From contig CAILTI010000025.1 of the NCBI GenBank assembly GCA_903837075.1, positions 1 to 61,138 on the forward strand: a DNA stretch of 61,138 nt, given 5' to 3'. Each line of letters starts with the position of its first letter. Positions within the stretch are counted from its first letter, which is position 1. Both the position numbers and the translations under genes were made by a program. Origin of the DNA: an uncultured bacterium. Lineage in GTDB: Bacteria; Patescibacteriota; Minisyncoccia; Phycocordibacterales; PALSA-1337. This document shows, piece by piece, positions 623 through 53,154 of the stretch. The notes below the pieces were generated by a model. The model ran no database searches. It saw only the letters and a list, made by a program, of their open reading frames with translations, and was not told the origin of the DNA.

Positions 623-2788
623 CTACGGCTGAACCTCTCTTATTGCCGCTTCTATTTCATCTTTTGCCTGTGGATAATAGGCCTCTATCGATCGTAATAT
701 CTCAATCGCCCGTGCAGTATTACCGGCTGCATATTGTATACGCGCCTGTTGAATAAGAGCGCTTATACTTTGTGAAGGGGTGATTATGTCCTGATAAATC
801 GACACTGCTTGCGATAGTTTTCCTGATAACATGTATGTCTTTGCTTTCTTTACCAAATCAAAATCCGCCCCCAACACATGAGCCGCATCATCTTCATGAC
901 CAGCCAATGCAAGCGTAACAGCATATGCAGTCGCTGCTTTTGCATATCCTGGAGCTAATTCGTAAGACTGTTTAAGGACACTGATCGCCTGATCAAGTTT
1001 ATTCTCAAACAAATACACTGACGCTAGCTCAAAACTTATTACCTGCTCTTCAGGTGCCAATGAGAGCGCCTTTCCAAGCAACGCTTCAGCATCGGCAAAT
1101 CTCCCGATCCTTTTCAAAAATGGCCCACTTATAAAATACACGTAAGCATCATTTGGTGTATTTAATATCTGTACATCTATTTGTTTGGAGACAAGATCGA
1201 TCAATAACTGCTTTGTTTGTCCGGTGGCCATAGGATTACTAAGAACATTATCCGTACATGATATAAGTTGCGAAAGAATATATTGACTAGACATAACATT
1301 ACTTACAGATATTGACTTTATAAACCATTCGATACTGGTAATTGGTTGGGAGCAGGACTCATTGGCAAGACTCAAATATTTGTTTGCCAATAGCGGTCTT
1401 ATATTCAAACAGTAAACAACTCCTATAAAGAATATGATGATAACTGGCACAAAGAAATAAATTATAATATCCTTTGATACTATCCTCCTATTAGCATTCT
1501 GCGACTGGTCATAAACACTGAAGGAATCTACCATAGCAAGTACAACAAAAAAGAATAGGTAGCTAGATAATGTATCAAATACAAACAAATTATGAACTAT
1601 ATACCCAATCAATAGACCTGTTAAAATATATTTTCCAGCTAACAAAAGTCGTGATTTCCAAAGAGCTATCATCAATAGTACATATATAGCGAGGTATGAA
1701 AGTAAACCTACAACTCCAAAAGATGAAAGCTGATCCAAAAAGATATTATGTGCACTGTCGACCCACTGCTCTACAGCATACATGTTGGGATTATAGTATT
1801 TCTGAAATAAGTAAACGAAGTTTCCTTGTCCCCAACCGAGAACAGGCCTTTCCGAAATACCCATCAAAGCAATGGGCCATATATACTGTCTCGACTGATC
1901 GCTTGCCGTCCATGAGATAGCTGCAAAACGTGACAGAACTGCACTTCGTTGAATGATCGGATTTGCGCGATTGAACCAGAACACTCCACCAACAATAATA
2001 GCGAGTCCTATAACACATCCGCATATGATGCGCCACCGCCTAAAGAGACGTGGCCCAAATATAGAAAAAGCGGCAATTGCTACTATTGAACCCAGCACCA
2101 ACCCAAGAAATGAACCTCTAGTACCAGTTTCAAAAATATTATAGACGAAAAGAAGTATTGCTATTACATATATAGAAAGCTGCAAAATCAAACGAGGCTT
2201 TCGTTGCCAAACAGTAACATACATATAAGCCGCTAGAAAAACATGGAAAAGAAGGTACGCAGCGAGAAAGGTCGGATTACCAAAAGATGAATCTATGCGC
2301 GTAGTATCAAAGTGCATTTGCATCCAACCAACGCTTTGAAACAATCCGTGCACACCAACAATCATCGCTATAAATAACGAAAAATTTATCCATCTATTCC
2401 ACATCTCATTTACATCACCAGCATTGAACATGCTTTTAATGACCAAATAAAATGCCCAAAGATGGATGATAGTAATCCAACCGTCCATTCGATCAAAATT
2501 GGACCAAAAACTCCTCATTGGATCTATGCCGATCAGATCAGCAACTAGCGACAAAACAACAAAAATACTAATAGTAATAGTAAGTGGCGTAAACCTAGGT
2601 CGGTATTTAAAATCAAACAAAGCTAGAATCAACCACGATGCAAATGCAATTTCTACAAGTATCCGAAAATAAAATGCTTGTCCTGTAATATATGGTACAA
2701 CGAAGGATGATATTACGACTATGGGAAAAATAGGAATAAGAAAAATCGCTGACAATGTTATATATTTTGCAATATTCTTAATATTCAT
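623..2788 (-). CDS. O-antigen ligase/polymerase-like polytopic membrane protein with C-terminal TPR repeats
   Basis: 721 aa with more than 10 hydrophobic helices and a Wzy_C-like region (GTRGSFLGLVLGS). The C-terminal ~230 aa carry TPR-like repeats (AEALLGKALSLAPEE, LDQAISVLKQSYELAPGY). Confidence 0.75.
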   Translation of the reverse strand: MNIKNIAKYITLSAIFLIPIFPIVVISSFVVPYITGQAFYFRILVEIAFASWLILALFDFKYRPRFTPLTITISIFVVLSLVADLIGIDPMRSFWSNFDRMDGWITIIHLWAFYLVIKSMFNAGDVNEMWNRWINFSLFIAMIVGVHGLFQSVGWMQMHFDTTRIDSSFGNPTFLAAYLLFHVFLAAYMYVTVWQRKPRLILQLSIYVIAILLFVYNIFETGTRGSFLGLVLGSIVAIAAFSIFGPRLFRRWRIICGCVIGLAIIVGGVFWFNRANPIIQRSAVLSRFAAISWTASDQSRQYIWPIALMGISERPVLGWGQGNFVYLFQKYYNPNMYAVEQWVDSAHNIFLDQLSSFGVVGLLSYLAIYVLLMIALWKSRLLLAGKYILTGLLIGYIVHNLFVFDTLSSYLFFFVVLAMVDSFSVYDQSQNANRRIVSKDIIIYFFVPVIIIFFIGVVYCLNIRPLLANKYLSLANESCSQPITSIEWFIKSISVSNVMSSQYILSQLISCTDNVLSNPMATGQTKQLLIDLVSKQIDVQILNTPNDAYVYFISGPFLKRIGRFADAEALLGKALSLAPEEQVISFELASVYLFENKLDQAISVLKQSYELAPGYAKAATAYAVTLALAGHEDDAAHVLGADFDLVKKAKTYMLSGKLSQAVSIYQDIITPSQSISALIQQARIQYAAGNTARAIEILRSIEAYYPQAKDEIEAAIREVQP

Positions 2789-2797
2789 AGAGTCGAA

Positions 2798-4318
2798 TTA
2801 TATTCCTTTGTTCAATAGTTCCCTTGTTGAAGGACCAACTATTCCAACAGCGTCAAGTCCATTTTTCTTCTGATATGCCTGTACACCCTCCTTTGTTTGC
2901 GAACCAAAATATCCTGTTATAGGTCCTGAATATACTCCGTCTGATTTCAACCTATGTTGCAGAGCCAAGACATCAGGATCTGACACTCCTAGTGCCGTCA
3001 TTCCAGGATATAGATAACGAGTGAAGGAAGCGCTTAATGCAGGTTGCTGATTCACAACTTGAACAGATCGTGGGCTTGATGGCAATTTTGATGAATTCCC
3101 CATCCAGAAATAGTACTGACCCACAACACCCTTTAGATTGGTAAAAGAAATTACAACTGGCAAAGGCAGAGCATCGCTACCAGTGGGTTTATACGTTGCA
3201 TAGTATACACCATCAGTTCCCTGGGTTACAGCTGTTTGATACCCGCCGATTTTTACCTGTACATTTGTCACCGTCTCGTTCGTACCAAAATTTACGCTTA
3301 TAGTGCTACCGGCTCCAAAAAATAATCCTAGTACGTCATTTGAAGACATAGATATCGAGGAAAGTTGTGGAGGTTGGTTGAATCCAGAAGACACTGGAGC
3401 AAGAATAGTGTTCTGAGTAGGCACGGCACTTCCAGAGCTCAGAGAGTTTACAATGATAGACCCACACATATAACCAGTTGCACATACAGATACAGTAGAC
3501 TGACCAACAGTCAAACCTTGGAGCACAAGGTTTGTTCCATTAATGCTGGCCGACACTATATCCTTATTTGTATTAGTTAATGCATTATAGGAACCGGGGC
3601 CATATATTCCAATCATCTGTGTAGGTTGCCCAACCACAACATAAGCCGGAGACTGATTGAATGTAACCGTTTGACTTGGAGACTTAACGGATATATTAAC
3701 AGTACCACAACCGACTGATGATGCGCAGATAGACACTGTAGACACTCCTATATTCAATCCTGTCATTAACACAGAATTGCTGTTTGTCTGGATCGATGTT
3801 GAAACAATATTAGGATTGGAATTTCCCGCAACTACCAAGGCATTCGCTGTGTTATCAGCATAAATGTTCACACTTTGACCTTGAACGATGGTGACATTTT
3901 GTTTAGATAGAGATAAGGCTCCCGTCTGTGTGGATATATTAGACGTTGTTGGCCAGGAAACCTTGGACGAGATGGCCCCATCTACAGATACATACACTGA
4001 TACTCCACCACTCAGACCATATGAATTAGGAGCAACAGAAACACTGAATGAACCATTTGCATCGGTATGACCGATATCTATGGACGTGTACAACGTGGTC
4101 GTTTGGTTTGTAGAATAAAGGTTTGGGTAATTGAACGTGACTACCGCGTTTTGACCTGCCCCAGCAACATCAACCCTGACTAAAGATACGTTGTCGGTAA
4201 TAGTCAAATTTGGTATATTCGCCGCCAGGACATGATTCATGAGTGTACCGGTAAGAATAGTGGCAACGATCATATTCATTGCTAGGTAGCCACTTTTTTT
4301 GAAAATATTTTTATTCAT
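2798..4318 (-). CDS. Secreted surface protein, Ig-like (Big_2-type) repeats plus C-terminal peptidoglycan-binding domain
   Basis: N-terminal hydrophobic anchor. Repeated ..STVS[IV]CA..GCG.. modules. C-terminal PG_binding_1 motif VLALQHRLKSDGVYSGPITGYFGSQTKEGVQAYQKKNGL. Confidence 0.7.
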   Translation of the reverse strand: MNKNIFKKSGYLAMNMIVATILTGTLMNHVLAANIPNLTITDNVSLVRVDVAGAGQNAVVTFNYPNLYSTNQTTTLYTSIDIGHTDANGSFSVSVAPNSYGLSGGVSVYVSVDGAISSKVSWPTTSNISTQTGALSLSKQNVTIVQGQSVNIYADNTANALVVAGNSNPNIVSTSIQTNSNSVLMTGLNIGVSTVSICASSVGCGTVNISVKSPSQTVTFNQSPAYVVVGQPTQMIGIYGPGSYNALTNTNKDIVSASINGTNLVLQGLTVGQSTVSVCATGYMCGSIIVNSLSSGSAVPTQNTILAPVSSGFNQPPQLSSISMSSNDVLGLFFGAGSTISVNFGTNETVTNVQVKIGGYQTAVTQGTDGVYYATYKPTGSDALPLPVVISFTNLKGVVGQYYFWMGNSSKLPSSPRSVQVVNQQPALSASFTRYLYPGMTALGVSDPDVLALQHRLKSDGVYSGPITGYFGSQTKEGVQAYQKKNGLDAVGIVGPSTRELLNKGI

Positions 4319-4341: not shown

Positions 4342-5367
4342 CTACTGTGCACTAGATACGACGAACGACAACGTTACCGGCAACGAACTTTGTGCATTAT
4401 TTATAAACAACGTATGGGAACCTGATGTCACACTAGTTGGAACTGTAAAAACTATCACCGTTCCATCTGGAGAAACGTATCTACTAGTCGCCTGCAGATT
4501 TGAATAATTGGAATCAAAATATATATTTGTAGACCTAGAAAATCCTGAACCTAGTAACACCACCGAAGTTGCATCGTCAGCATAAGCAGAAGCCGGCGCG
4601 ATTGACGTGACACTAAATTGCGGAGCTATAACAGTGAACCAGCCACTTACATCGTCATTTGGAGTAGATCCTGTGTTGTTACCCTGTATACGTATTCGGT
4701 ACGTTCCGATAGGGAGATCTTGGTATGAATTTGTTATAGATGAATATATATTACCAACCTTCCAGAGATATTGATTCCCATTACTGCCTGGCAATTGACT
4801 TAGAGCAATGAAACCTGCCCCAGCTCCTCCAGGTCGCTCTAAACTAATATTATAACCACCAGCAATAGTTTTATCCCATCGTATCATTGTAGAGCTTCCT
4901 ATTGAAAGTGCCTGACCAGTAGCAGGTGATTTAATACCAGTATTCGAAATGGCAGGAACTCCGACAATTGGTGAAACTGATGCCTGATTAGCAGATGACG
5001 TGGCTGGATTATTATTAACTATTCCACTCAAGCAGGTTTTTTGATTGATCGATGCTCGAGTCTGAGAACCAACATAACCTGTAGGAGAAATACCATTATT
5101 AGTCTGATATTTTTTTACAGCTGATAAAGTCAGCAAACCAAAATATCCGTTTGGTGTGGCCGCTAAATAATTCGAAGACTTTAGGTAAGTCTGAATCATT
5201 GATACGGAATTATCCGAGGCAGAGTCGTTCAGACCAAAAGAAAGGTCGTGCGCTAAGTTAACACAGATCGATTGGGCAGAGGCCATCTGTACAGACGTGA
5301 ATAATGTACACACGACTGACAATGCGAGAACGGATTTGCCAGTTTTGCTCACAATATAATTATACAT
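4342..5367 (-). CDS. Secreted protein, N-terminal peptidoglycan-binding domain plus Ig/IPT-like C-terminus
   Basis: Signal peptide (..SVQMASAQS). PG_binding_1-like segment VSMIQTYLKSSNYL..GYFGLLTLSAVKKYQTNNGISPTGYVG. Confidence 0.7.
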   Translation of the reverse strand: MYNYIVSKTGKSVLALSVVCTLFTSVQMASAQSICVNLAHDLSFGLNDSASDNSVSMIQTYLKSSNYLAATPNGYFGLLTLSAVKKYQTNNGISPTGYVGSQTRASINQKTCLSGIVNNNPATSSANQASVSPIVGVPAISNTGIKSPATGQALSIGSSTMIRWDKTIAGGYNISLERPGGAGAGFIALSQLPGSNGNQYLWKVGNIYSSITNSYQDLPIGTYRIRIQGNNTGSTPNDDVSGWFTVIAPQFSVTSIAPASAYADDATSVVLLGSGFSRSTNIYFDSNYSNLQATSRYVSPDGTVIVFTVPTSVTSGSHTLFINNAQSSLPVTLSFVVSSAQ

Positions 5368-5529
5368 GCACTAATTATAACCTATTGGAACTTAAACTTA
5401 CATAGACATGAGACATACAACATATAATCACAACATAAAGTTATCAATATTATCAAACACAAAAACCACTCTTTCGAGTGGCTTTTGTTCCAACTTTGTA
5501 ACCCGTTGGGAGGAGATTGACCTATACTA

Positions 5530-7392: not shown

Positions 7393-7942
7393 TTTTTATA
7401 ATTTTACGCATGCCTCTCCATTTATTTATAATTCGAAGGAAAGATTGATGCGGCTAGTAAGCTAACTGATAATCTAACTCATGCCACTTCTCCCACCTCA
7501 ACGCTATCGACACGCCGAAGTACGAGATTTTGTGGGTACACTAAATACGAACTTATCTAACTAGATATTATTTAGTTTTCAAAGTTCGTGTCTATCCTAC
7601 GAAGCTTTCGCGAGGTAGGATCCCCTCTGCTGTTATGCTTTGGGACGAGGGTATTATAAGTACGAAACTTGTAACACACTCGTTGCAAAACATTATAGCT
7701 CATAATGTACACACTATGCAAAAGGGTGATGTGTGGATAACATTACTAACTATACTATATTTATTTACTAAAAAAGGCCTCAAATCCATGTTTTCTCATG
7801 CTTTTGTGGCTTCGTGTAGTAATAGAGCCATATTAGCTGATTTCGTGCTATTAGTCAATCAAGAGAATGTTCAACGTCCAATGACACAATATTCAGTGGA
7901 CATTGCGTCATTGCCTCGCCTGCCGGCAGGCAGGAATATTGT

Positions 7943-8970: not shown

Positions 8971-11310
8971 ATGGCAAAGAAAAAAGATACCGACCTCGGC
9001 AAGAAAATCAGATTCTGGGATGAGATGAGTACTGGCACCGTGCAGGCCATCTCTGCCATTCTCTCGTTCCTAGTAGCTACGATCGCCCTGTTGGCCGCCT
9101 TTGGAAAGGCGGGAGTAGTCGGTGATTATGCATTCATATTTCTCTCTAGAATGTTCGGTATCGGCTACTACTTGATACCTCTAGTTTTCGCCATGCTCGG
9201 CATAACTTTCCTACAAGGCCTCAAAAGTAAGTTCCAAATATCCAAAGCCCTCGGCGCTCTCCTATTCTTCGTCTCGGGTCTAGGATTGATCCACCTCATC
9301 TATACTGGCGCTGGCGGTGTGATCGGTAAGTTCATCGACTATCCATTCCTCAAACTTATCGACTACTTGGCTACATCGATACTGATGACCGCCGTCCTGA
9401 TCATATCGATCTTCATGACATTCGATCTACATATCACCTGGGAGATGTTGGCATTCTGGCGCAAGAAAGAAACTGAGGAATCGACAGACGTCAAGATCGC
9501 AGCAACAGATGACGAAGACGACATCGATGAGATGGTCGCGGCAGCCAGTGCGAAGAGTGCCGACCAATTGAGTGCACGAGAGATAGAAGCGGCCGCAGCG
9601 AAAGCTAGGATGGAAGCATTGCAGAAAGAAAAGAAGAGTAAAGCCAATACCGGACTCGATCTCGGAGATGACGAAGAAGCGAATTTTGCAGCATTGACAT
9701 CTATGCCGCGCCTCAGACCATTCAATGCTCCTCCTATGTCACTCCTCGAGAAAGATCGTGGTAAACCTGAAACTGGCGACATCAAAGCCAACGCCAATAT
9801 CATCAAACGCACTCTGCAAAACTTTGGTATCACAGTAGAGATGGACGAGATCTCGATCGGTCCATCTGTCACTCGCTATTCATTGAAACCGGCTGAAGGA
9901 GTAAAGTTGTCTAGGATCGTGGGCCTGAACAATGACCTGGCTCTAGCACTAGCAGCACATCCGATACGTATCGAAGCACCGATCCCTGGGAAATCTCTAG
10001 TCGGTATCGAAGTTCCCAATACTGCCAAAACAACCGTCGGACTGGCAACCCTCTTGTCTGCTGCAGAATTCCAGGAATCTGAAAAGCCTCTACTAGTCTC
10101 ACTCGGCAAGGACATCACTGGCAAGGCGCATTTCAGTAACCTTGGCAAAGCACCTCACATGCTGATCGCCGGTGCCACCGGTTCGGGCAAATCCGTCACT
10201 ATTCACGCCCTGATCGCTTCCCTACTCTACCGCAACTCTGCTGATAGTATGAGATTCATCATGATCGACCCCAAACGCGTAGAATTGACCCTATACAACA
10301 AGATTCCTCATTTATTGACTCCTGTTATCACCGACCCAAAGAAAGCTATCCTTGCCTTGAAATGGGCCGCCAAAGAGATGTCCCGCAGGTATGACACGTT
10401 GGAAAAGAATACGATCAGGGACATCGACTCGTATCACAAGAACGTTTTGGCGCCAGCTATTGCAAAATTTCAGAAAAATTCATCTGCGCATCCTTTTGTG
10501 GGGAGTAGTTCCTTCCCTCAAACCCACAAGGGGAATCGGGAAGAAACTCTCCCCCCAGCGGATGCGAATAAGTCCCTGCCAGAAACCATGCCGTACATCG
10601 TCATCATCATCGATGAGTTGGCAGATATCATGCAGAGTTATCCTAGAGAACTAGAGTCCGCTATCGTGAGACTAGCCCAGATGAGTCGCGCTGTCGGTAT
10701 TCACCTCGTTATCTCCACACAGAGACCGAGCGTGAACGTCATCACCGGTCTCATCAAGGCCAACATCCCTACTCGTGTCGCTCTCCAGGTAGCATCACAG
10801 ATCGACTCACGTACCATCCTCGATCAGATGGGTGCTGAAAAATTGCTCGGTGCTGGTGACATGCTCTACCTCGGCGGTGAAATGTCCAAACCTGTTCGTC
10901 TACAATCCGCATACATCTCTGAGTCAGAGGTTAAGAAAGTAGTAAAGTTCATCTGCGACCAATATATAGACGATATTCCTGAAACTATCGATTTCGCAGC
11001 AAAAACTCCTGAAGCAGGTTCAACTTCTGCCTTCGCGGCGATGGATGACGGTGATTCCATAGAAGACGATGACGATATGTACGAACCAGCGAGAGAGGCA
11101 GTCATCACCGCCAACAAGGCCTCTACATCATTCATCCAACGCAAACTCGGTATAGGATATTCTCGTGCAGCGAAACTCATAGACATGTTAGAAGAACGCG
11201 GCGTGATCGGTCCTGCCAATGGTTCCAAGCCTAGGGAGATCATAGGAGTAGGAGGTGCTACTGCTACGATCAGTATTCCGACCGAAGAAAGTGAGCCACC
11301 TATCTTTTAG
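8971..11310 (+). CDS. ftsK: DNA translocase FtsK/SpoIIIE
   Basis: N-terminal TM helices and an acidic linker. Walker A AGATGSGKS, Walker B IIIDELAD, gamma wHTH SFIQRKLGIGYSRAAKLIDMLEERGVIG. Confidence 0.95.
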   Translation: MAKKKDTDLGKKIRFWDEMSTGTVQAISAILSFLVATIALLAAFGKAGVVGDYAFIFLSRMFGIGYYLIPLVFAMLGITFLQGLKSKFQISKALGALLFFVSGLGLIHLIYTGAGGVIGKFIDYPFLKLIDYLATSILMTAVLIISIFMTFDLHITWEMLAFWRKKETEESTDVKIAATDDEDDIDEMVAAASAKSADQLSAREIEAAAAKARMEALQKEKKSKANTGLDLGDDEEANFAALTSMPRLRPFNAPPMSLLEKDRGKPETGDIKANANIIKRTLQNFGITVEMDEISIGPSVTRYSLKPAEGVKLSRIVGLNNDLALALAAHPIRIEAPIPGKSLVGIEVPNTAKTTVGLATLLSAAEFQESEKPLLVSLGKDITGKAHFSNLGKAPHMLIAGATGSGKSVTIHALIASLLYRNSADSMRFIMIDPKRVELTLYNKIPHLLTPVITDPKKAILALKWAAKEMSRRYDTLEKNTIRDIDSYHKNVLAPAIAKFQKNSSAHPFVGSSSFPQTHKGNREETLPPADANKSLPETMPYIVIIIDELADIMQSYPRELESAIVRLAQMSRAVGIHLVISTQRPSVNVITGLIKANIPTRVALQVASQIDSRTILDQMGAEKLLGAGDMLYLGGEMSKPVRLQSAYISESEVKKVVKFICDQYIDDIPETIDFAAKTPEAGSTSAFAAMDDGDSIEDDDDMYEPAREAVITANKASTSFIQRKLGIGYSRAAKLIDMLEERGVIGPANGSKPREIIGVGGATATISIPTEESEPPIF
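10486..10566 (+). repeat. Family A palindromic element, diverged copy, in frame in ftsK
   Basis: GCGCATCC..GGGGAGtagttCCTTCCC..CCCacaaGGGG..GGGAAGAaacTCTCCCC..GGATGCG. Collinear with 16940-17022. Confidence 0.8.
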
Positions 11311-11315
11311 TGATT

Positions 11316-11424
11316 TACGAATGTAAAATGTAAATATTAAAATGGAAAATGACAATGTAAAATCAAAAAAGCTGGCGTACTTGTGATCTCATTTTGCCTT
11401 TTACATTTTCCATTTTACATTTCC
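11316..11424. repeat. Family C AT-rich hairpin element (copy 1), fills the ftsK-downstream spacer
   Basis: Shares AAAATGTAAATAT (11325-11337) and ATTTTCCATTT (11405-11415) with 15625-15741. Internal arms AAAATGGAAAATG / CATTTTCCATTTT. Confidence 0.6.
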
Positions 11425-15624: not shown

Positions 15625-15741
15625 AATGAAAAATGTAAATATCAAAATTCAAAATAATAACACTCAAACTGTGTACAGTTTACAATGGATCATTTGCAAT
15701 TTTGAATTGTAATTTTCCATTTGGATTTTTAATTTTTAAAT
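15625..15741. repeat. Family C AT-rich hairpin element (copy 2), fills the rpsF-ssb spacer
   Basis: AAAATGTAAATAT at 15630-15642 and ATTTTCCATTT at 15712-15722. 10-bp stem AATTCAAAAT (15646-15655) / ATTTTGAATT (15699-15708). Confidence 0.6.
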
Positions 15742-15747
15742 TACTAT

Positions 15748-16550: not shown

Positions 16551-17474
16551 CTATTTCTGTAGTTCAAAGAAATTTCGTGCGTTGGCAAGGACTCGTTCGG
16601 CGACTTTATCAGCACTTTCACCACGAATCTCGGCTATCTTTTTTACAACTTCGATAACATAGGATGGTTCGTTCCTCTTGCCTCGATATGGTATCGGTGC
16701 CACAAATGGGCAATCAGTCTCTGTCATTATCTTGTCGGCTGGTGCCGATCGGATAAGTTCGTCGTAATTCCGTGCAAAAGTGACCACGCCAGTAAATGAA
16801 ATGCTGCAGCCCATCGACAACGCCTCATTCATGTCCTCCATCGTACCCGCAAAGAAATGAAAATTTGCAGGAACTTTCGCATACGTGCGCAATATTTGGA
16901 TAGCTTCCTGATAGGCATTACCGCCCGCTTCTGTCAGTGGCGCACCCTTTTGGGAGGAGTAGCTTCCTCCCTCAAACCCATAAAGGGAATCGGGAGGAAC
17001 CTCTCCTCCCAAGCGGGTGCGCGTATTTATAGAAACTTTCGAATTTACAGTAGCATTCCTCACATGCAACATGAGAGGTTTCCTGACAATATTTGCCAAT
17101 TCGATATGTTGGATGAAAACTACTCTTTGATGCGCCATATTCGCCGGTTCGGAATGAAAATAGTCTAGTCCACATTCACCTATAGCGACAACTTTTGGAT
17201 GCCGCGCCAACTCCGTGAATGCAGCAATGTCGAATGAACTATCTTTGGGTGGACCATCACCCCTCGATCCGGCTGCTTCCGTAGGATGCATACCTATGAT
17301 GGCCCACATGTCATCGTGTTTCTCTGCCAACACGACGCACGCCCTTGAGGACACGAGATCTGTCCCCACCGTGATGATGCCGACACCGGCATCATGTGCG
17401 CGCTTTATAACTTCTTCCCTATCTGCGTCATATTCAGGAAAATTGACGTGACCATGTATGTCTATGTAGTTCAT
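16551..17474 (-). CDS. tatD: TatD-family metal-dependent hydrolase, carrying a family A insert
   Basis: IDIHGHVNF, GECGLDY, LMLHVRNA, ETDCPF motifs. Confidence 0.9.
   Translation of the reverse strand: MNYIDIHGHVNFPEYDADREEVIKRAHDAGVGIITVGTDLVSSRACVVLAEKHDDMWAIIGMHPTEAAGSRGDGPPKDSSFDIAAFTELARHPKVVAIGECGLDYFHSEPANMAHQRVVFIQHIELANIVRKPLMLHVRNATVNSKVSINTRTRLGGEVPPDSLYGFEGGSYSSQKGAPLTEAGGNAYQEAIQILRTYAKVPANFHFFAGTMEDMNEALSMGCSISFTGVVTFARNYDELIRSAPADKIMTETDCPFVAPIPYRGKRNEPSYVIEVVKKIAEIRGESADKVAERVLANARNFFELQK
16940..17022 (+). repeat. Family A palindromic element, best copy (83 nt), in frame in tatD
   Basis: GCGCACCC tttt GGGAGGAgtagctTCCTCCC tcaaa CCCataaaGGG aatc GGGAGGAacctcTCCTCCC aagc GGGTGCGC. 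Confidence 0.9.
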
Positions 17475-19043: not shown

Positions 19044-19108
19044 ATGGAACTAGTGTACAGGTAAAGAAATCCCGCGACAAGGCCTCTCCTTGTCTATATA
19101 TTTAATCA

Positions 19109-20206
19109 TCAGATCTTCCCCACCTTCTCTAGAGATGCCCTCTCGGCCCTCTCGGCGTTCTTGTATTTCTCGATGTCATGAATATATTCCATGAGTGCGG
19201 CAGAGAGTGGCACAGCGATAAGTGCCCCCAAAACTCCAGCAAGCTTGGCACCGATCACCAAAGCCAGGATAACGACGATCGGAGAAATACCAACGATCTT
19301 CCGAACTACCAGAGGATAGAAGACCTGACTCTCGAGCTGATAGATGATGAGATATAGACCCAGGAGGAGCAGACCAACACTGAAACCACGGTCAGTAAAA
19401 GCGAGCAGTATTGGCGGGATAGATGATATGATCGGGCCGAATATCGGGATGATTTCCAAGATCGCCGCGAGTAATGCGAAGAGTAATGCATGCTCGATAC
19501 CGACAGACTTTAGCAGGATATAAACCAGAACACCGACAACGATACCGAGAATGATCTGACCCTGTAACCACAGTGCGATCTTGCGTTGTGATCTCTTCCA
19601 GAGATCTATGATGTATTCATGATGCTTGACCGGTGCAACGATGCGCAAGAAATCATCCACACCGTCCTCCTTTACCGCCAGATAGAATGACAGCACGACG
19701 ATCAGGATAAAACTCAACAACCCACCGAATATCGCGCCCAAAGTTTGGAATAACGTGTCAGTGTTGCCGGCAACCAATGATCGCAGCTGATTGACTATAT
19801 TTGTGAGTGACAGTGTATGTTCCCCGAAACTATATGAGGAACCGAAGTTGATTCCTATGTTACTGATAGGGCTCCAGAGCTCTTGGAATGTAACCGTTTT
19901 TGGCAGAGTCGTTAGGAAATTGGTAGCATCACTGACGAGTAGAGGCATGAAGAAGACGAAGACGGCCGCAAGGAGCAATGACAATACGATATATATCGTG
20001 ATCACGCTCGCCACCCTATGGATCTTGCGCCTCTTTAATCTCCGAACTAATGGCTCTATGGCCGAAGCGATAACTATCGCGGCTACCATGACGACCACAA
20101 CATCTGACAAGTAGTATATCGCACCCATGAGGAGGAGAACGAGAAAGAAGCGAATGATCGTGCCCGTATTTATAGATATTTTGGCAATTGGATTTTGATC
20201 TGTCAT
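19109..20206 (-). CDS. AI-2E family transporter (PerM/UPF0118-like permease)
   Basis: 365 aa, about 8 TM helices, typical ..IL.IIP..GP.I.. segment (ILEIIPIFGPIISSIP). Confidence 0.8.
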   Translation of the reverse strand: MTDQNPIAKISINTGTIIRFFLVLLLMGAIYYLSDVVVVMVAAIVIASAIEPLVRRLKRRKIHRVASVITIYIVLSLLLAAVFVFFMPLLVSDATNFLTTLPKTVTFQELWSPISNIGINFGSSYSFGEHTLSLTNIVNQLRSLVAGNTDTLFQTLGAIFGGLLSFILIVVLSFYLAVKEDGVDDFLRIVAPVKHHEYIIDLWKRSQRKIALWLQGQIILGIVVGVLVYILLKSVGIEHALLFALLAAILEIIPIFGPIISSIPPILLAFTDRGFSVGLLLLGLYLIIYQLESQVFYPLVVRKIVGISPIVVILALVIGAKLAGVLGALIAVPLSAALMEYIHDIEKYKNAERAERASLEKVGKI

Positions 20207-21538: not shown

Positions 21539-21646
21539 AATCTTGGTAACAGAGTGTAGAAGGGGTACGGATATTTTCCTGCTGGAAAATTCCTCGTGCT
21601 CGCACCAGTGCTCGCAAGCCCCCTTCTCCCCTCTGTTACCAAGATT
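21539..21646 (+). repeat. Family B element, intergenic copy 18 nt after the glyQS stop
   Basis: 62-nt core GGGGTACGGATATTTTCCTGCTGGAAAATTCCTCGTGCTCGCACCAGTGCTCGCAAGCCCCC flanked by AATCTTGGTAACAGAG / CTCTGTTACCAAGATT. Confidence 0.9.
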
Positions 21647-30233: not shown

Positions 30234-33200
30234 TCAAAGCTTCGCTGCGGAGAAAGCACAGCCGACATAGGAATACGAGACCCCCGGACCGCCCGTGAGG
30301 ACGCGGCCGCCGACAGCACCGAAGTCCCCGGCGAAAACGACGTAGCCAAAGGACGTGCGCGATTTAGTCCATGAATATGTATTTGGCAACAGTCGTTCGC
30401 CTGTAGCACGTTCCGTTAGGACCGTACGATAGAACCATTCAATGAATGATTCGCGGAACATCTGGGTCAATTTCAATTTTTCAAGAGTATCCGCGGCTGA
30501 TTTCCACTTAGGATCGTCTGATGACATAGAGTCGTCTTGAAGCTTTCTGAATTCTTGTTTATTGCTTTTCAGAGCAATCCATTCTCCGAGAGCTTCCTTG
30601 ACGTCCTTGGGCATCTCTTCATTTCCATATAAACCAACAACATAATCAGCCAAAACACCGGTCTGTTCGAGATAGTTTCTGTTCGTCGATTCAGGAATCA
30701 TGTCCTTCGAGACGAGTTTCCAGCGTAATTCTGCCCCTTCTTTAGTAAAGAATTTTTCATTTTTATACCACTCAGTATCGTAAAGAAGTTTTGTAGCGTC
30801 TTTTTTCTTATCCCCTAGCATTCCGTAAAGTCTTTTCCCATCAACCTTTTCAAAACTTCCATGCATACTTGACACAGGAATTATCTGACTACCCCCATAT
30901 AATATAAGTTGGTGTGTATCCTTCAGCCTCTCAATTAATTCTAGTGAAAAAGGAATATCCGGAATTTTTTCTGGAAATTCTAGTCCTAGTGCCGCTTTAA
31001 CCTCCTCCGGTCCATAGAAATTCGCTCCCATGATTTCCTTGGCTTCTTTCATTGTAATGCCTTCATGTGGTAAAGAAGCCTCAAAAGTACTCCACCCCTT
31101 CTCCATTTCATCTCTCATATTTACGACTCTCGCCATATCTCCAGTCCTAGCACATTCATCGAGTAATACTTGGAACTCATGAGTTTTATTCGTGCAGCTT
31201 TCAATGAATTGATCAACAAGCGAAACAACTGCTGGAATTTTATAACCCTTAAATTTTTCCTTGGTAGTTTTCAGTCTTTCGGAATATGATTGTTGGAATA
31301 ACTCCAATTCATTCAATTTTTCCGCTACCGCAATGTCCGGACTAATTGCTTCCTCCGATACTGTCCCCTTCTTCCTATAATCCGGCCATCTTGTTCTTTC
31401 CGGCCCTGTACCGAAAACAGTATCGACTACCTGGCGCGGGCCGTTAAATTCTATTTTCGGCGCAGGGACTTCTGGAGCGCTCACTTTGAAAGCGGAAACT
31501 GTGCCTTTCGAGCCATAATCAGGGTTCTGTTCCCATTTACCTCCTTGGAAAAATCCATACTGATCCTTGAACAGTTGATACAAATAGGCCTTGTCGGAAA
31601 GCTTTGTGGGCTGATTGACGAATTCGGTAAAAACATAGTGATCAAGCTCGTTCCGATAACCATCATTCTGCCAAGCCGTTATTATCCTGTCCATGCCGCG
31701 TATAGACAGCACACCCTCTTTCAGGCGATATTCAAACGACGTAGTTCCACCGCCCTGATTGAAGAATTGCGATTTATCGACAGAACCGCCGGAAAAATTG
31801 TCTTCCGTGGCACGCGCGGCCTTGGCCAGATTCCAGAGCTTGCGCAATTCGCCTTCAGGTATTTCTATATTACCGTTCTTATCCATAACTCGTGACACGA
31901 TCAATTCAAAAAGCTCATTCCTGCCACCCCTGCCGTCGCCAGCGCTCGCTTCATCCAGTGTACCGACTTTCACCTGCGGCAAATAATCATGCTTCATCAA
32001 ATGCAGTCGTGAGAGAAAAGCTGGATCAAGATCCTGGCGCATGACATAACGATCGGCACCGCCTTCATTTATATTACCCGTGAGTATGAAGCCAAATCCT
32101 TCTGCAATCTTCACTTCACTGCCACTATTTTGTTGTATCCTGATAACATCTCCGACCTTACGAGTGAGAAGATGATTCAGACTGATCAAAACATCGTGCG
32201 GGATAGCATTGACCTCGTCGAGAATGATCGGTCGGCCTTCAGACATGGCTTGGTAGACTTGACCCATATAAAAGTCGGAGACTGTACCGCTACGATACTC
32301 GTAAGCCAATCTTTCCTGCAAACCGGATTTGATCAGATCGAACTGCTGTTCGGCCTCTTTATCTTTTGCTTCAGGATTTTCTTTCCTCCACCTATCCATT
32401 TCATCGTTTACCGTCTTTAGGAAAGTTTTATAGCGCTTTTCCGATTCGTTAGGATCGACTTCACGCAAACTCAAAACTTGATGACCAAAAAGCTCCGCAG
32501 GTGAAGTATGTTTCGAACCAGAGATGATCAACGCTTCTTTATCAAAATATTTGCGCGCTACGTGAAAAGCCAGTTCAGTTTTTCCTGATCCAAGATGGCC
32601 GTGAATAAATACCGGCTGGCCGGCTCGAACATGGGAAACTATTTCTTCTGCTTGCTTGCGCACGTAATCCGTCTCGACTATCTTGCCAGATTCTAGTTGC
32701 TCCTTGTACCCCTTCAATTCTTTTAGGTTAAGTCCGTACCATGCTTCCGGAGATGATTGCTTTAATTTCTCGCCTGCCGCATCTAGTGCGCGTTCTTTTT
32801 CTGCTGCCTTGGATAACAAGGTCCGCTCTGCAGAAACTGACTTGCCAGCACCCTGATTGGTTATCATTTTCTTGATAATGCCAGTTTCAAATGCGACTAT
32901 TCGTCCGCGTTCCCTTTCTAGTGCAGCTTCCGTCTTCATTGCCCGAGACAAGTTCATCCACCTCAAAGAGGCCAGGGCTTTTTCCGGAGAGGCTCCGTCT
33001 CCCAAAAGCTTTTCGTAGGCTTCCTCGTGTGCGATCTTCTCCGCCTGTATACTGTCAGCATCAGATTCGTTCAGAGGCTCGATACCGAGCTCTGACAAGA
33101 GCTTCTCGTCTGCCTTGCCGCTTTCAGAAACGTTCACGAAGTCCACTTCCACTTTTCCACCCAACGCAACAGACTTGCGTTTCAAAACTTCTGCCTTGTT

Positions 33201-33539
33201 TACATTTGACTCAGCTTTGACCCACTCATCAGTAGATAAAGGTTGACCATCCATCAACGCTTCAGCAATCAACTTGCCCGAAAGCGGATCCTCCGGTTTG
33301 GTGTCTTCAATAATTCTTATTTTATAAGGCCTACCAGGTTCAATATTCGATCCTACCGGAAGTTCTATTGACTTTCTGTCAGGGCTGCTTGATTTGTAGC
33401 CGATAACTTTACCTTTTTTGTCTTTGATTTCTTTGAAAACAACGTCCTCCAGAATTTTTTCTTTGCCAACAGCAGATTCTGTAGTCATGGCCGGTTTCTG
33501 TTGATCTTCTGGTGTTCTTGGACTTTCTGGTGATTTCAT
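30234..33539 (-). CDS. 1101-aa MoxR/AAA_5-type AAA+ ATPase with large unassigned N- and C-terminal regions
   Basis: Walker A GHLGSGKT (res 314-321), Walker B PIILDEVN, sensor FILTGN, DPAFLSRL. Confidence 0.8.
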   Translation of the reverse strand: MKSPESPRTPEDQQKPAMTTESAVGKEKILEDVVFKEIKDKKGKVIGYKSSSPDRKSIELPVGSNIEPGRPYKIRIIEDTKPEDPLSGKLIAEALMDGQPLSTDEWVKAESNVNKAEVLKRKSVALGGKVEVDFVNVSESGKADEKLLSELGIEPLNESDADSIQAEKIAHEEAYEKLLGDGASPEKALASLRWMNLSRAMKTEAALERERGRIVAFETGIIKKMITNQGAGKSVSAERTLLSKAAEKERALDAAGEKLKQSSPEAWYGLNLKELKGYKEQLESGKIVETDYVRKQAEEIVSHVRAGQPVFIHGHLGSGKTELAFHVARKYFDKEALIISGSKHTSPAELFGHQVLSLREVDPNESEKRYKTFLKTVNDEMDRWRKENPEAKDKEAEQQFDLIKSGLQERLAYEYRSGTVSDFYMGQVYQAMSEGRPIILDEVNAIPHDVLISLNHLLTRKVGDVIRIQQNSGSEVKIAEGFGFILTGNINEGGADRYVMRQDLDPAFLSRLHLMKHDYLPQVKVGTLDEASAGDGRGGRNELFELIVSRVMDKNGNIEIPEGELRKLWNLAKAARATEDNFSGGSVDKSQFFNQGGGTTSFEYRLKEGVLSIRGMDRIITAWQNDGYRNELDHYVFTEFVNQPTKLSDKAYLYQLFKDQYGFFQGGKWEQNPDYGSKGTVSAFKVSAPEVPAPKIEFNGPRQVVDTVFGTGPERTRWPDYRKKGTVSEEAISPDIAVAEKLNELELFQQSYSERLKTTKEKFKGYKIPAVVSLVDQFIESCTNKTHEFQVLLDECARTGDMARVVNMRDEMEKGWSTFEASLPHEGITMKEAKEIMGANFYGPEEVKAALGLEFPEKIPDIPFSLELIERLKDTHQLILYGGSQIIPVSSMHGSFEKVDGKRLYGMLGDKKKDATKLLYDTEWYKNEKFFTKEGAELRWKLVSKDMIPESTNRNYLEQTGVLADYVVGLYGNEEMPKDVKEALGEWIALKSNKQEFRKLQDDSMSSDDPKWKSAADTLEKLKLTQMFRESFIEWFYRTVLTERATGERLLPNTYSWTKSRTSFGYVVFAGDFGAVGGRVLTGGPGVSYSYVGCAFSAAKL

Positions 33540-33614
33540 GATATTAAATGGTATTAAAATGCCTATATTTTAGGCCATATTTAGATTTCTAAGATAATCG
33601 ATCACCATGTGTAC

Positions 33615-33643
33615 TTGACAAATATGGTGGGGTCTGCTATATT
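33615..33643 (+). promoter_or_regulatory. Sigma70-like promoter TTGACA-17-TATATT
   Basis: TTGACA at 33615-33620, TATATT at 33638-33643. Confidence 0.45.
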
Positions 33644-33649
33644 AATAAC

Positions 33650-33883
33650 GGTATAGAGGGTTCGTGAAGTGTTTCCGAAACTCTCAATTGTTCGTTAAGA
33701 TCGGTGCGCGAGGGCATATTGTAAATGGTACTGACCATTCAATAATACCACGTAGATATGGGTTAGCCAAACCCACACATGCACAGCGCTTTCATTAAGC
33801 TCCGCTGATCGGAAAGGCCTAGCCACGGCCGACCGCAAAGCGTAGTCATACCCCCCATAAAAAAATGGGGGGTGTTCTATTTT
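33650..33883 (+). ncRNA. Candidate ~234-nt RNA between the vWA and AAA+ genes, antisense orientation, class unknown
   Basis: Consensus promoter plus CCCCCCA taaaaaaa TGGGGGG followed by a T-rich tail. The 3' half is GC-rich and structured. Confidence 0.35.
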
Positions 33884-33899
33884 CGAGATAATGCCATTC

Positions 33900-36234: not shown

Positions 36235-38085
36235 CTACATCCTCTTCGGTACCTTGATTCCGAGCAACCACAACCCTTCAGTCATCGTCCTCAAGAACGT
36301 CCTGGTAACGAGCAGTCGATAGACCGACAACGGGTCCTGGATGTCTATGATAGTTTGTGTCGCATAAAATGCATTGAATGCGCCGGCGAGCTGCACGAGG
36401 TAGTTCGCCACACCCTGTGGTGCATACTCATCTCCTGCACGCCCCGCGATATCAGTGAAGCGAACGATCAACCTTTCTAGCAGGCCGACTGTCTCTGGCA
36501 ACATTACTTCCCCCTTGTCCAGACCCTTTATACTCTCCTTAACCGCTTTGTCCAATATCGATTGCGCCCTAACCGCTGAATATTGCAGATATGGCCCAGA
36601 ATCTCCCTCGAAGGATATAGATGCCGCGGAGTCAAAAACGACATTGCCACCGATCGCCTGACGGAGGATGGTGTATTTGATAGCCCCGATCGCGATCATA
36701 TCAGCGATCTCATCCGCCTCATCAACATCGAATGCTCTATCAGCGATCTTTTCCATGACCATCTTCTTCATATCTCCGATCAATGACTCGGCAGCTATCA
36801 CATTGCCTGTCCTAGATGACATCTTGCCAGTGGCAAACCTGAGCATACCGTGTCCGATATGTATAGTCTTTGAACCGTTCTTCTCATCGATCAGAGAAAG
36901 TACTTTCGTGAGCACCTTGAAATATTCATTCTGCTCGTTGGCTGTGATGATGATGGACTTTGTGGCATCTGGATATTTCTGAAATTTTGTTACGTTCAAT
37001 CCAACATCCTTCGTCTCATATGTCGGCAGTCCGCGACTATTCACAAATACGCGAGTATGTAGCCCGTGATCTTCACCTTTGAATACGATCGCTCCATCAC
37101 TCTCTTCGAATACACCGATATTCGCACCCAAATCTGTCGATTTTGTATCACCCGATCTTTCGGCTTGTTCACCTTTCATATGCTCCCTCACCACCTTCAT
37201 GCCTACCGGAGCCATCTCACTCTCGAATATTTGCCGATCGAACTTCGTGCCCAGAAGTTGGTAAAGCATATCGAAATGTTCCAAACTCCATGCCCTGCCC
37301 TTTTCATAGAGATCATTCACCGCTTCATCAGACTCATCGTAGACTGCCTGGTTCAATTCATCTATCTCATTCTTCGCCGACGGGTCAGTGTCATAGATAT
37401 TGGTACCTTCGACATACATCTTGCCCAGAAATGCCGTCCTCTCTGCTATAGGTGCCGCTTCACTCGGTATCTCACCTAGGTGCAGTTGCATCGCCCAGAT
37501 CGCCTTGGCGATATGCAGACCGATATCCGACGGATAGCAGATTCTCACAACTTTCGCGCCACCAAATTCTATCAACCTAGAAATGGATTCCCCGATAGTA
37601 TTCGACATGACATGCCCGATGTGAAATGCCTTGAACGTATTGGGGTCTGTGTATTCGATGAGAACGGTGTTCCCTTTTCCGTCCTTTTGGGAGGAGTAGC
37701 TTCCTCCCTCCTGCCGGCCGGCAGGCACGGCAAACCCGTAAAAGGAATCGGGAGAAACCTCTCCTCCCAAGCGGGCAGATTTACTAATCTTAACAACATC
37801 CTCCGCAAAAACCTTATCCTCAATTTTAAAATTTATGAATCCCGGTCCAGCCATAGAAATATCTCGTATTCCCAATCCTTCAATATTTGAATTCTTCAAT
37901 CTTTCAATGATTTTCTCCGCCAACTCCTTCGGAGCCATCTGCAATTGCTTGGCATATGAGAGTGCGGCGTTCGTCGAAAAGTCTCCGTGGTCCAGATTTT
38001 CCGGATAATCTATCTTTACCAGTGGCTCGGAGATGCCGAGATCTATGAGAACAGTCCTCAATGCGTCGATGATGTATTGCTTCAT
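36235..38085 (-). CDS. argS: Arginyl-tRNA synthetase, carrying a family A insert
   Basis: AFHIGHVMS (HIGH-type), DALR-type C-terminal domain, C-terminal ..KRM. Confidence 0.95.
   Translation of the reverse strand: MKQYIIDALRTVLIDLGISEPLVKIDYPENLDHGDFSTNAALSYAKQLQMAPKELAEKIIERLKNSNIEGLGIRDISMAGPGFINFKIEDKVFAEDVVKISKSARLGGEVSPDSFYGFAVPAGRQEGGSYSSQKDGKGNTVLIEYTDPNTFKAFHIGHVMSNTIGESISRLIEFGGAKVVRICYPSDIGLHIAKAIWAMQLHLGEIPSEAAPIAERTAFLGKMYVEGTNIYDTDPSAKNEIDELNQAVYDESDEAVNDLYEKGRAWSLEHFDMLYQLLGTKFDRQIFESEMAPVGMKVVREHMKGEQAERSGDTKSTDLGANIGVFEESDGAIVFKGEDHGLHTRVFVNSRGLPTYETKDVGLNVTKFQKYPDATKSIIITANEQNEYFKVLTKVLSLIDEKNGSKTIHIGHGMLRFATGKMSSRTGNVIAAESLIGDMKKMVMEKIADRAFDVDEADEIADMIAIGAIKYTILRQAIGGNVVFDSAASISFEGDSGPYLQYSAVRAQSILDKAVKESIKGLDKGEVMLPETVGLLERLIVRFTDIAGRAGDEYAPQGVANYLVQLAGAFNAFYATQTIIDIQDPLSVYRLLVTRTFLRTMTEGLWLLGIKVPKRM
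37678..37777 (+). repeat. Family A element in frame in argS, with nested 16-nt GC palindrome
   Basis: TTTTGGGAGGAGTAGCTTCCTCCCTC + CCTGCCGGCCGGCAGG + ..AAACCCGTAAAAGGAATCGGGAGAAACCTCTCCTCCCAAGC. Confidence 0.9.
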
Positions 38086-46378: not shown

Positions 46379-46476
46379 ATAACAATGAATGGTGCAGGGG
46401 TACGGATATTTTCCTGCTGGAAAATTCCTCGTGCTCTCACCAGTGCTCGCAAGCCCCCTTCACCCTTCATTGTTAT
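46379..46476 (+). repeat. Family B element, intergenic copy 22 nt after the DUF541 gene stop
   Basis: The core differs from the 21539-21646 copy at one position. Flanks are ATAACAATGAA / TTCATTGTTAT. Confidence 0.9.
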
Positions 46477-47326: not shown

Positions 47327-47434
47327 ATACGAATCTACGAATATTACAAATATGCGAATGATTACGAATGTTATCTAGCCTACTCATGTGGATTCGTATC
47401 CATTCGCATATTCGCACCACTCGTAGATTCGTAT
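47327..47434. repeat. 108-nt imperfect palindrome built from TACGAAT-type words, abutting the folD stop
   Basis: ATACGAATCTACGA (47327-47340) / TCGTAGATTCGTAT (47421-47434). AATATGCGAATG (47349-47360) / CATTCGCATATT (47401-47412). Confidence 0.8.
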
Positions 47435-52981: not shown

Positions 52982-53154
52982 TGCACCGCTATGTATGCAA
53001 GCAACGTACTATATGCACGCAGTGGTGCGAGGATGAATGTCGGCATCCTTCGTGATTACAAAGGCGTTAAAGCGAAGCATCATTGTGACCATTATTTATT
53101 AGGGTAATTATTCTAAAGATCAAAGTTGATACCCATTATTAATCTAAATACAAT

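Follow-up and report, generated by a model that had tools for sequence, protein, structure and literature searches.

A palindromic repeat probably resembling the Rickettsia palindromic elements inside housekeeping genes of Candidatus Taylorbacteria

The 61-kb stretch of contig CAILTI010000025.1 analysed here (45% GC; hereafter the window, to which all window scans refer over its entire length) contains three copies of a short palindromic repeat, designated Family A, which are located inside the genes encoding the TatD-family hydrolase, the arginyl-tRNA synthetase (ArgRS) and the DNA translocase FtsK. Based on the sequence comparisons Family A is probably a non-autonomous palindromic repeat similar to the Rickettsia palindromic elements (RPEs), which resides inside housekeeping genes and is translated as a loop peptide. 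A selfish palindrome of this type, inserted in frame into housekeeping genes of a member of the candidate phyla radiation (CPR), had been proposed in a preliminary description of this DNA, and the proposal gained support in that both sequence-based attempts to refute it failed. The ArgRS of the window belongs to a 90% cluster including MEI8327580.1, which is labelled Candidatus Taylorbacteria; the host is a member of the Patescibacteria, Candidatus Taylorbacteria.

The 83-nt sequence quoted in the preliminary description was found at positions 16940..17022 (+ strand, taken as the reference orientation; 60% GC) within tatD (16551..17474, - strand), which encodes a protein of 307 aa whose Pfam match (PF01026, E 1.9e-70) is broken into two stretches by the insert. 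Read in the host frame -1 this copy yields the peptide RTRLGGEVPPDSLYGFEGGSYSSQKGA. The near-identical copy reported for argS is present at 37678..37777 (+ strand; host gene at 36235..38085 on the - strand) and is likewise read in frame -1, yielding ARLGGEVSPDSFYGF-AVPAGRQ-EGGSYSSQKDG. Its host gene encodes an ArgRS of 616 aa (Pfam PF03485, PF00750, PF05746) identical to protein P0004. The main difference between the two copies is a nested GC-rich palindrome of 21 nt, CCTGCCGGCCGGCAGGCACGG (37709..37729, + strand), which forms an alignment gap relative to the tatD copy, adds seven in-frame codons owing to its length being a multiple of three, and is shared by the relatives L005-L010 (~97% identity). 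The diverged copy in ftsK was confirmed at 10486..10566 (+ strand). Since ftsK itself is encoded on the + strand (8971..11310; 779 aa; Pfam FtsK_4TM, alpha, SpoIIIE and gamma domains), this copy has the opposite orientation relative to its host gene and is read in frame +0 as AHPFVGSSSFPQTHKGNREETLPPADA. The three host gene assignments were in agreement with Pfam.

In a search of the window with an nhmmer profile built from four copies, the tatD, argS and ftsK copies were recovered with E-values of 8.7e-28, 2.5e-22 and 4.6e-24, respectively, and no match below E = 4 was obtained beyond these three copies and their own reverse strands. A covariance model run with the filters off assigned them 109, 82 and 89 bits, the next matches in the window being unrelated palindromes with at most 16 bits, and an independent repeat search returned the same three members. 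Family A has a length of ~81-87 nt (100 nt for the argS copy with its nested insertion), a GC content of 58-62% compared to 45% in the window, and no coding capacity of its own. The best other weak match in the window comprises 16 nt at ~5500-5516 and resembles the end of the element; such matches look like chance Shine-Dalgarno-like GGAGG strings.

The preliminary description had furthermore listed a decayed fourth copy in glyA (39357-39420) and had placed all four copies inside coding sequences. The glyA region was detected neither by nhmmer (E<=100) nor by the covariance model (E<=10), it folds no better than shuffled sequences (z ~0), and its best gapped local score of 23 was equalled by two of 1326 control windows, so that scores of this level arise by chance in the window. 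The region was thus rejected as a copy, and the statement on coding sequences holds for three of three real copies. At the same position SHMT contains a lineage-specific insert of ~20 residues (ATHVKGDTATADQSVPPVVQATPK region), which is missing from the SHMTs in the PDB and from that of L012 (405 aa) and is common to L011. The origin of this insert cannot be tied to Family A by its sequence.

Family A was also detected in relatives of the window, for which 18 related loci (L001 to L018) were considered. L002, L003 and L005-L010, with ~95-99% DNA identity, have the copies in tatD and argS, which differ by one or two substitutions; the strain-level substitutions are few and are located at unpaired positions or in the terminal pair. 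An argS site that seemed empty in ~97%-identical relatives proved to hold a copy with a C>T change, which the pattern scan had missed. As the family was recovered in independent assemblies from JGI, NCBI (GCA_037146795.1), ENA and Logan, it does not represent an assembly artefact.

Among more distant loci, L001 ("uncultured bacterium MJ-2014 bin-1666", an unrelated bacterium; contig of 38% GC) carries a copy in an SMC gene which is 92% identical to the tatD copy over 75 nt and which represents the sole similarity between this contig and the window. In L004, which belongs to the closest other lineage (P0005; 71% ArgRS protein identity), the argS copy is inverted relative to that of the window, and the upstream junction is located at the same codon in both, in the - orientation in the window and in the + orientation in L004. 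Copies in tatD were found in L013 and L015 in the orientation of the window and in L014 in the inverted orientation (E 1e-17 to 1e-20; 1e-14 to 1e-20 together with the argS copy of L004). No Family A copy was detected in L016 or in the regions of 22 kb that are syntenic in L011 and L012; the ArgRS of L012 (P0012) has a short canonical linker, and the TatD protein P0133, which is among the closest relatives, has a site of canonical length without insert or scar. The tatD gene of L017 has retained 22 nt that match the end of the L013 copy exactly, the rest being lost, which represents a clear deletion scar, and that of L018 contains what looks like a weaker scar. A single tatD site, at which intact and inverted as well as frameshifted and scarred copies occur, provides a natural time course of gain, remodelling and loss.

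Scans with the exact pattern resulted in one match in the GTDB representative genomes, and two orthologous matches in the JGI metagenomes; viral contigs, phage records and plasmids gave none. The exact pattern was too strict for the diverged copies, which were later found via TatD and ArgRS homologues. A word-index search with the 44-aa TatD insert peptide gave no candidates and was uninformative, and an exhaustive phmmer search with a 30-aa peptide against 1.84 billion cluster representatives gave just three spurious tandem-repeat translations.

The preliminary description had noted a segment of ~45 residues in TatD at a point where canonical TatD/YcfH proteins are contiguous, and the alignments with solved structures bear this out: the chains in the PDB are contiguous at residues 134/135 (2gzx) and at residue 143 (1j6o), where the query residues aligned on the two sides are 143 and 190, and 141 and 187, respectively. 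The whole extra segment of 45-46 residues (residues ~144-189; 16908..17045, - strand) comprises ~152-179 encoded by the element, and the remainder represents variable flank. In an AlphaFold2 model of the TatD protein based on 120 homologues (mean pLDDT 87.6) the sole segment of at least three residues with pLDDT <50 and coil conformation extends from 151 to 181 and thus approximately matches the element peptide, which is therefore predicted to form a disordered loop. The tryptic peptide expected from the insert is LGGEVPPDSLYGFEGGSYSSQK. The copy in ArgRS is located between the Arg_tRNA_synt_N and the catalytic domains, where the ArgRS structures in the PDB show a gap, and the copy in FtsK lies in a variable loop ahead of Walker B of the motor; the FtsK of the syntenic relative L015 has a shorter, unrelated loop without the element. 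The inserted residues were absent from orthologues of other phyla, the PDB chains of TatD and ArgRS being gapped and closer Paceibacteria having short or unrelated linkers. Judged by composition and alignment, Family A is inserted DNA of foreign composition at loop positions where it seems to be tolerated.

Directly adjoining the tatD element, an 18-nt (6-codon) indel at ~17029-17046 distinguishes the window (…NATVNSKVSINTRTR…) from L002/P0126 (…NATANTRTR…); in the strain-specific extra piece the neighbouring TAAAT(T/A)CG is repeated in part. Many of the TatD homologues P0138-P0169 contain a segment of 12-20 residues, "AKPNSKGGSATND..IDPNEH", at the same site after LHVRN, and the TatD alignment shows this site to be hypervariable across the Paceibacteria.

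Four of the six frames of the Family A consensus are free of stop codons. In the mirror frames +1 and -1 reading enters the element with an equal offset of 1 nt, whichever end comes first, so that a flip in place would keep the host frame. The copies in tatD, argS and the SMC gene of L001 are read in frame -1 and encode RLGGEV.PDS.YGFEGGSYSSQKG, the peptides of the first two being as previously stated (RLGGEV[PS]PDS[LF]YGF..GGSYSSQK). The argS copy of L004 is read in frame +1 (ILLEGVASSLK...), the tatD copy of L015 starts in frame -0 and shifts to -1, and the tatD copy of L014 starts in frame +0 and shifts to +1. The DNA identity to the window tatD copy is nevertheless 0.77-0.89, the copy of L004 being the most diverged with 0.71. 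A nucleotide similarity explainable by a shared peptide motif alone would have argued against a mobile palindrome. However, the copies in ftsK, L004 argS and L014 tatD are read otherwise and encode unrelated peptides, while their DNA is 77-86% identical (71% for L004), so that a shared peptide motif is not the cause and was rejected on the basis of frame and orientation.

As the preliminary description had claimed, the host frame is kept open, and this applies to eight of eight diverged copies (product of the open-frame fractions 0.015). The internal length changes of +21 and +9 nt are both multiples of three, and the paired frameshifts in L014 and L015 dodge the stop codons of the consensus. 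Open frames, in-frame indels and stop-avoiding frameshifts together appear to favour read-through rather than excision or ribosomal bypass.

Folding of each copy had been suggested as a check, and the predicted stability is far beyond chance, with z-scores against shuffled controls of -10.5 for the tatD copy and of -6.2 and -5.0 for the other two; the tatD copy folds with -58.2 kcal/mol and none of 200 shuffles was as stable. All copies, whichever strand is folded, have as their minimum-free-energy (MFE) structure a single long interrupted hairpin topped by an apical stem of 3 bp. The preliminary description had instead drawn three hairpins enclosed by an 8-bp closing stem. Since GGGAGGA/TCCTCCC is present twice in Family A, both pairings are possible on paper, and the two models were compared on ten aligned copies representing five host contexts (three from the window and seven from other loci). 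In the long-hairpin model 92.3% of the cells are paired and 12 pairs are changed on both sides, a level reached by none of 500 shuffles and by none of the register-slid controls, which were all lower. The three-hairpin model has 85.7% paired cells, seven pairs changed on both sides and a weakest helix, helix 4, with only 77% pairing, whereas the long hairpin has no weak helix. In the region that discriminates between the models seven double-changed pairs, including 17-99 (GC:6/AU:4) and 29-88 (CG:5/UA:4), conform to the long hairpin, compared to one per local helix in the three-hairpin model. The three-hairpin architecture is thus neither the MFE fold nor favoured by covariation; it represents one possible pairing of an internally repetitive palindrome and was rejected. 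The terminal inverted repeats, GCGCAYCC...GGRTGCGC, occur with the compensatory variants CACATCC/GGATGTG and GCGTC/GACGC. Rfam contains no family for Family A and gave just generic miRNA-precursor-like hairpins far below threshold. The conserved shape is a single long interrupted hairpin; the covariation of its arms does not by itself show an RNA function.

Between the lineages the third-codon identity of the tatD flanks is 0.39-0.44, which is near saturation, compared to 0.77-0.90 for the elements. The window tatD copy is closest to the copies in argS (0.89) and ftsK (0.85) of the window and in the SMC gene of L001 (0.84), while the tatD copies of L013 and L014 reach 0.77-0.78; the ftsK copy is closest to the tatD copy of L015 (0.86). 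The similarity of the elements does not follow the locus, which argues against simple vertical drift. The copies are presumably either younger than the divergence of their hosts, having been inserted repeatedly into the same loops, which would be permissive or preferred, or constrained or homogenised at the DNA level. For the inverted pair in argS a flip in place and a site-specific re-insertion would fit equally well.

The following scenario is proposed for Family A as an RPE-like repeat. As single-stranded DNA or RNA its two halves, being complementary nearly end to end, would form one long interrupted hairpin. Copies would have entered, or would have been copied into, permissive surface loops of TatD, ArgRS, FtsK and SMC, mobilised in trans, now or formerly, by an enzyme that is encoded at another place and recognises the hairpin or the termini GCGCAYCC...GGRTGCGC. 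In either orientation they would be translated straight through as a disordered loop of ~27 residues rich in Gly, Ser and Pro, which the host tolerates. Later drift may have produced in-frame indels, compensating frameshifts, nested palindromes and internal deletions leaving scars, while selection on mobile master copies, correction templated by the hairpin (template switching) or a combination of the two may preserve the complementarity of the arms. The best-supported part of this scenario is that translation into a harmless disordered loop allows the element to survive in essential genes, translation being presumed from the reading frames rather than removal from the mRNA. As no mobilising enzyme, target-site duplication or shared target motif was found, mobilisation in trans is a step that we infer.

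Several observations weigh against an RPE-like mobile repeat. Pfam searches of the window and the 18 related loci revealed no transposase, no RAYT and no insertion sequence (IS) with matching ends, and they gave no transposase in the large unknown open reading frames (ORFs), in the strain-specific 6-kb segment between argS and ileS or in a 124-aa ORF of L002. Inspection by eye of the junctions in the five host contexts showed no target-site duplication and no common target motif; the ends of the element were deduced from the palindrome, so that short duplications could be hidden. A clean empty site at nucleotide resolution was not recovered among the loci, so the ends rest on the palindrome. 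The reuse of the tatD and argS sites in both orientations would fit an old insertion inverted in place as well as repeated insertion. When the product of the open-frame fractions is restricted to the four copies that do not depend on intact proteins for their discovery, it is 0.15, which is weak. Finally, the scans detected Family A in few genomes, and the family is therefore rare, fast-diverging or hidden inside clusters.

Some of these observations are shared by an explanation in which the copies are old, immobile insertions. Each site would have been hit once in an ancestor of these Paceibacteria, and the palindrome would no longer be a transposon but would be maintained by quasi-palindrome template switching, flipped in place occasionally through recombination or strand switching of its two arms and homogenised among copies by gene conversion. 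Both the common codon at the upstream junction of the oppositely oriented argS copies and the frame neutrality of a flip, which results from the 1-nt offset shared by the frames +1 and -1, conform to this explanation, as do the occupation of the tatD site in at least four lineages, with the scar in L017 and the weaker one in L018, and the lack of a detected mobilising enzyme or target-site duplication. Template switching has also been proposed for the coding palindromes of Nematomorpha mitochondria (PMC6649704). However, the copy in the SMC gene of a bacterium with 38% GC, 92% identical over 75 nt, requires transfer or transposition at some time, and the presence in three unrelated genes of one 61-kb window requires multiple insertion events anyway. 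Taking furthermore into account that element similarity does not follow locus orthology and that the close relative with TatD P0133 has a canonical-length site without any scar, old immobile insertions seem unlikely, though not far-fetched. The very stable hairpin within a coding region would in turn be expected of an intervening sequence, either excised from the mRNA in an intron-like manner or bypassed by the ribosome as in the yeast mitochondrial "byp" hairpins or T4 gene 60. Yet the host frame runs open through every copy, and if the segment were removed or skipped there would be no need for indel lengths divisible by three or for stop-dodging paired frameshifts. Since Rfam furthermore gave no signature of a group I or group II intron or other ribozyme and no pair of matching take-off and landing codons was noticed at the junctions, an intervening sequence is considered very improbable.

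The conservation of the pairing could also reflect a hairpin that serves the cell, such as a site for RNase III or for mRNA stability, a pause of translation between domains or a cruciform bound by protein, rather than a selfish element. The 12 pairs changed on both sides are in line with such a role, and the same is true of the far stronger conservation of the elements compared to the flanking third-codon positions and of the few strain-level substitutions, confined to unpaired positions or the terminal pair. The covariation may, however, equally originate from different master copies or from template switching, and the patchy distribution among close relatives, with the same sites empty or deletion-scarred elsewhere, argues against a needed function. 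The host genes are functionally unrelated, the orientation relative to the transcript is not conserved as an RNA signal would normally need, and the Rfam matches are restricted to sub-threshold, generic miRNA-precursor-like hairpins. A functional hairpin is thus regarded as improbable. The common frame and peptide of the tatD, argS and SMC copies might finally suggest a shared protein motif, and chance low-complexity sequence or an assembly artefact belong to the same group of explanations. Their probability is practically negligible considering the 77-86% DNA identity (71% for L004) to the tatD copy of the ftsK, L004 and L014 copies despite their other frames or strands, the E-values of 1e-14 to 1e-28 and the copies in independent assemblies from four sources.

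A more far-reaching, rather doubtful possibility is that Family A is a site-selective, orientation-reversible coding palindrome, which repeatedly occupies the same loops of essential genes across the Paceibacteria, namely the position after LHVRN in TatD and the linker between the N-domain and the catalytic domain in ArgRS. Its symmetry would possibly have evolved for translation in either orientation, and its arms would be kept by hairpin-templated repair. If true, this would be a previously undescribed route of persistence for a mobile element in the streamlined, gene-dense genomes of the CPR, and might be a general source of lineage-specific protein inserts in this group.

Other repeats were detected in the window and the related loci. 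A second palindromic family (21539-21646, 46381-46473 and 48842-48951; 82-nt core with 91% and 67% identity) has inverted arms of 27 nt on both sides of each copy. Two of its copies are located between genes, and the third lies inside an ORF of 332 aa predicted to encode a methyltransferase (48311-49309), upstream of the Pfam domain, and may be another in-frame insertion. The region 21552-21633 of this family cannot be aligned to L002 (5610-5776), a relative with ~98% identity. The ArgRS gene of L016 (11453-11608; P0085, also in P0019) contains another palindromic in-frame insert in the part encoding the C-terminus, with the peptide …VVIPASRSEAKAQAGIQGH…LDPRFRGDDTE… and an MFE of -63.6 kcal/mol over 156 nt, which suggests several families of coding palindromes in the Paceibacteria. 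The SMC protein of L001 that hosts Family A also contains "GSAGAPAGCNPRPVGEV" (~4600-4700), which resembles "SSPAGATAGSNPRTIETP" inserted in ArgRS P0043/P0054 and may represent a third repeat family. Just downstream of an ORF ending at 7943 (sic, palindrome at 7911-7935) the GC-rich palindrome GCCTGCCGGCAGGC resembles the 21-nt palindrome nested in argS and could be either a hairpin of terminator type or an independent small unit of palindromic sequence. An AT-rich inverted repeat located between the SIMPL gene and folD (47327-47434; 43-nt arms, 84% complementary, 22-nt spacer) gave a weak match to the Family A covariance model. AT-rich "AATGTAAAATGTAAATATTAAAATGGAAAATGA" motifs occur as direct and inverted repeats in two intergenic regions (11320-11421 and 15625-15742). 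Direct repeats were found at 96-144/507-555 (49 nt, 98% identity, 411 nt apart) and, inside the overlapping ORFs of 53139-53829, at 53312-53358/53405-53451 (47 nt, 100% identity, 93 nt apart).

The window furthermore differs from its relatives in two larger segments. The region 30234-36224 between argS and ileS contains ORFs of 1101 aa (AAA_5/McrB-like ATPase) and 774 aa (faint VWA match). In the relatives L005-L010 (~97%) argS is directly followed by ileS, so that this region represents a strain-specific insertion of ~6 kb, possibly a defence island. Conversely, between metG and the AI-2E permease gene the close relatives (L002 at 2379-3171, corresponding to 19085-19115 of the window) have an extra segment of ~790 nt with the above-mentioned 124-aa ORF, which has no Pfam match and is not present in the window.

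In-frame translated palindromic repeats have so far been regarded as peculiar to Rickettsia and Wolbachia. An RPE-like Family A would imply that the phenomenon is not confined to the Rickettsiales, and would fit small, gene-dense genomes which leave the loops of essential genes among the few refuges for such elements. It would also explain concretely where some of the lineage-specific inserts in CPR housekeeping proteins, so far unexplained, come from. Annotators and phylogeneticists should be cautious with Family A segments, as they are non-homologous insertions. The preliminary description knew of no such elements in CPR-like genomes, and full-text searches of the literature likewise gave no report of them in CPR, Patescibacteria or Parcubacteria.

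Among the known systems, the RPEs are most similar to Family A. RPE-1 to RPE-10 are stem-loop repeats of 105-150 bp with terminal inverted repeats, which occur as in-frame fusions within many conserved genes of Rickettsia and are translated and tolerated, with no established target-site duplication or transposase (Ogata et al. 2000, 2002, as summarised in PMC2229807 and PMC10969869). Between 44 and >700 copies are present per Rickettsia genome, R. felis having 728 copies, of which 85 are in ORFs (PMC1166351). Protein-coding palindromic repeats were also reported for Wolbachia (Ogata et al. 2005, cited in PMC2229807). Family A shares with the RPEs the lack of own coding capacity in a short repeat, the long stem-loop, the terminal inverted repeats, the in-frame position in unrelated conserved genes with an extra peptide gained by read-through (predicted for Family A), the tolerated surface positions, the loss of identity of the copies over time, the lack of a clear target-site duplication and of a known transposase, and a host-dependent bacterium with a small genome. 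It is set apart by its host, a member of the Patescibacteria (Candidatus Taylorbacteria) instead of the Rickettsiales, and by its length of 81-87 nt (100 nt with the nested insertion); a sequence relationship is not expected. Moreover, Family A occupies the same loop of the same gene in opposite orientations, with inversion being frame-neutral. To our knowledge this has not been described for RPEs. For the guanylate kinase of Rickettsia, forms with and without the insert have reportedly been compared in activity and stability.

Small, non-autonomous elements with terminal inverted repeats and stable stem-loop transcripts are also represented by the MITEs (miniature transposable elements with inverted repeats) ERIC/IRU, the 107-bp Correia/NEMIS and YPAL (PMC2229807), whose open frames may be fused in frame to host ORFs, as intragenic fusions of ERIC, Correia and YPAL demonstrate (Delihas 2008, PMC2229807). 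However, these families are mainly intergenic, generate TA or other target-site duplications and sometimes have a known parent IS (PMC2229807), whereas all observed Family A copies are intragenic, with no visible duplication and no parent IS in the window or the retrieved loci. The REP/BIME sequences mobilised by RAYT, an IS200/IS605-type transposase, resemble Family A in being GC-rich imperfect palindromes acting as hairpins, and the RAYT mechanism inserts without target duplication (PMC3733652). REPs are, however, extragenic, 20-40 bp in length, marked by a terminal GTAG/CGTC tag and accompanied by a RAYT gene (PMC3733652), while Family A has ~83 nt, is intragenic, carries GTAG just inside its 5' arm and lacks a RAYT gene in the available sequence. 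The coding palindromes of Nematomorpha mitochondria share with Family A long inverted repeats in coding sequences with both arms translated (predicted for Family A) as well as dynamic gains and losses, template switching having been proposed to keep their arms complementary (PMC6649704). Yet these palindromes are perfect and locus-specific and encode conserved residues, and do not form a dispersed family of extra loops. Family A thus works like the RPEs in a phylum for which no such report was found, and the occupation of the same sites in both orientations represents an unusual extra feature.

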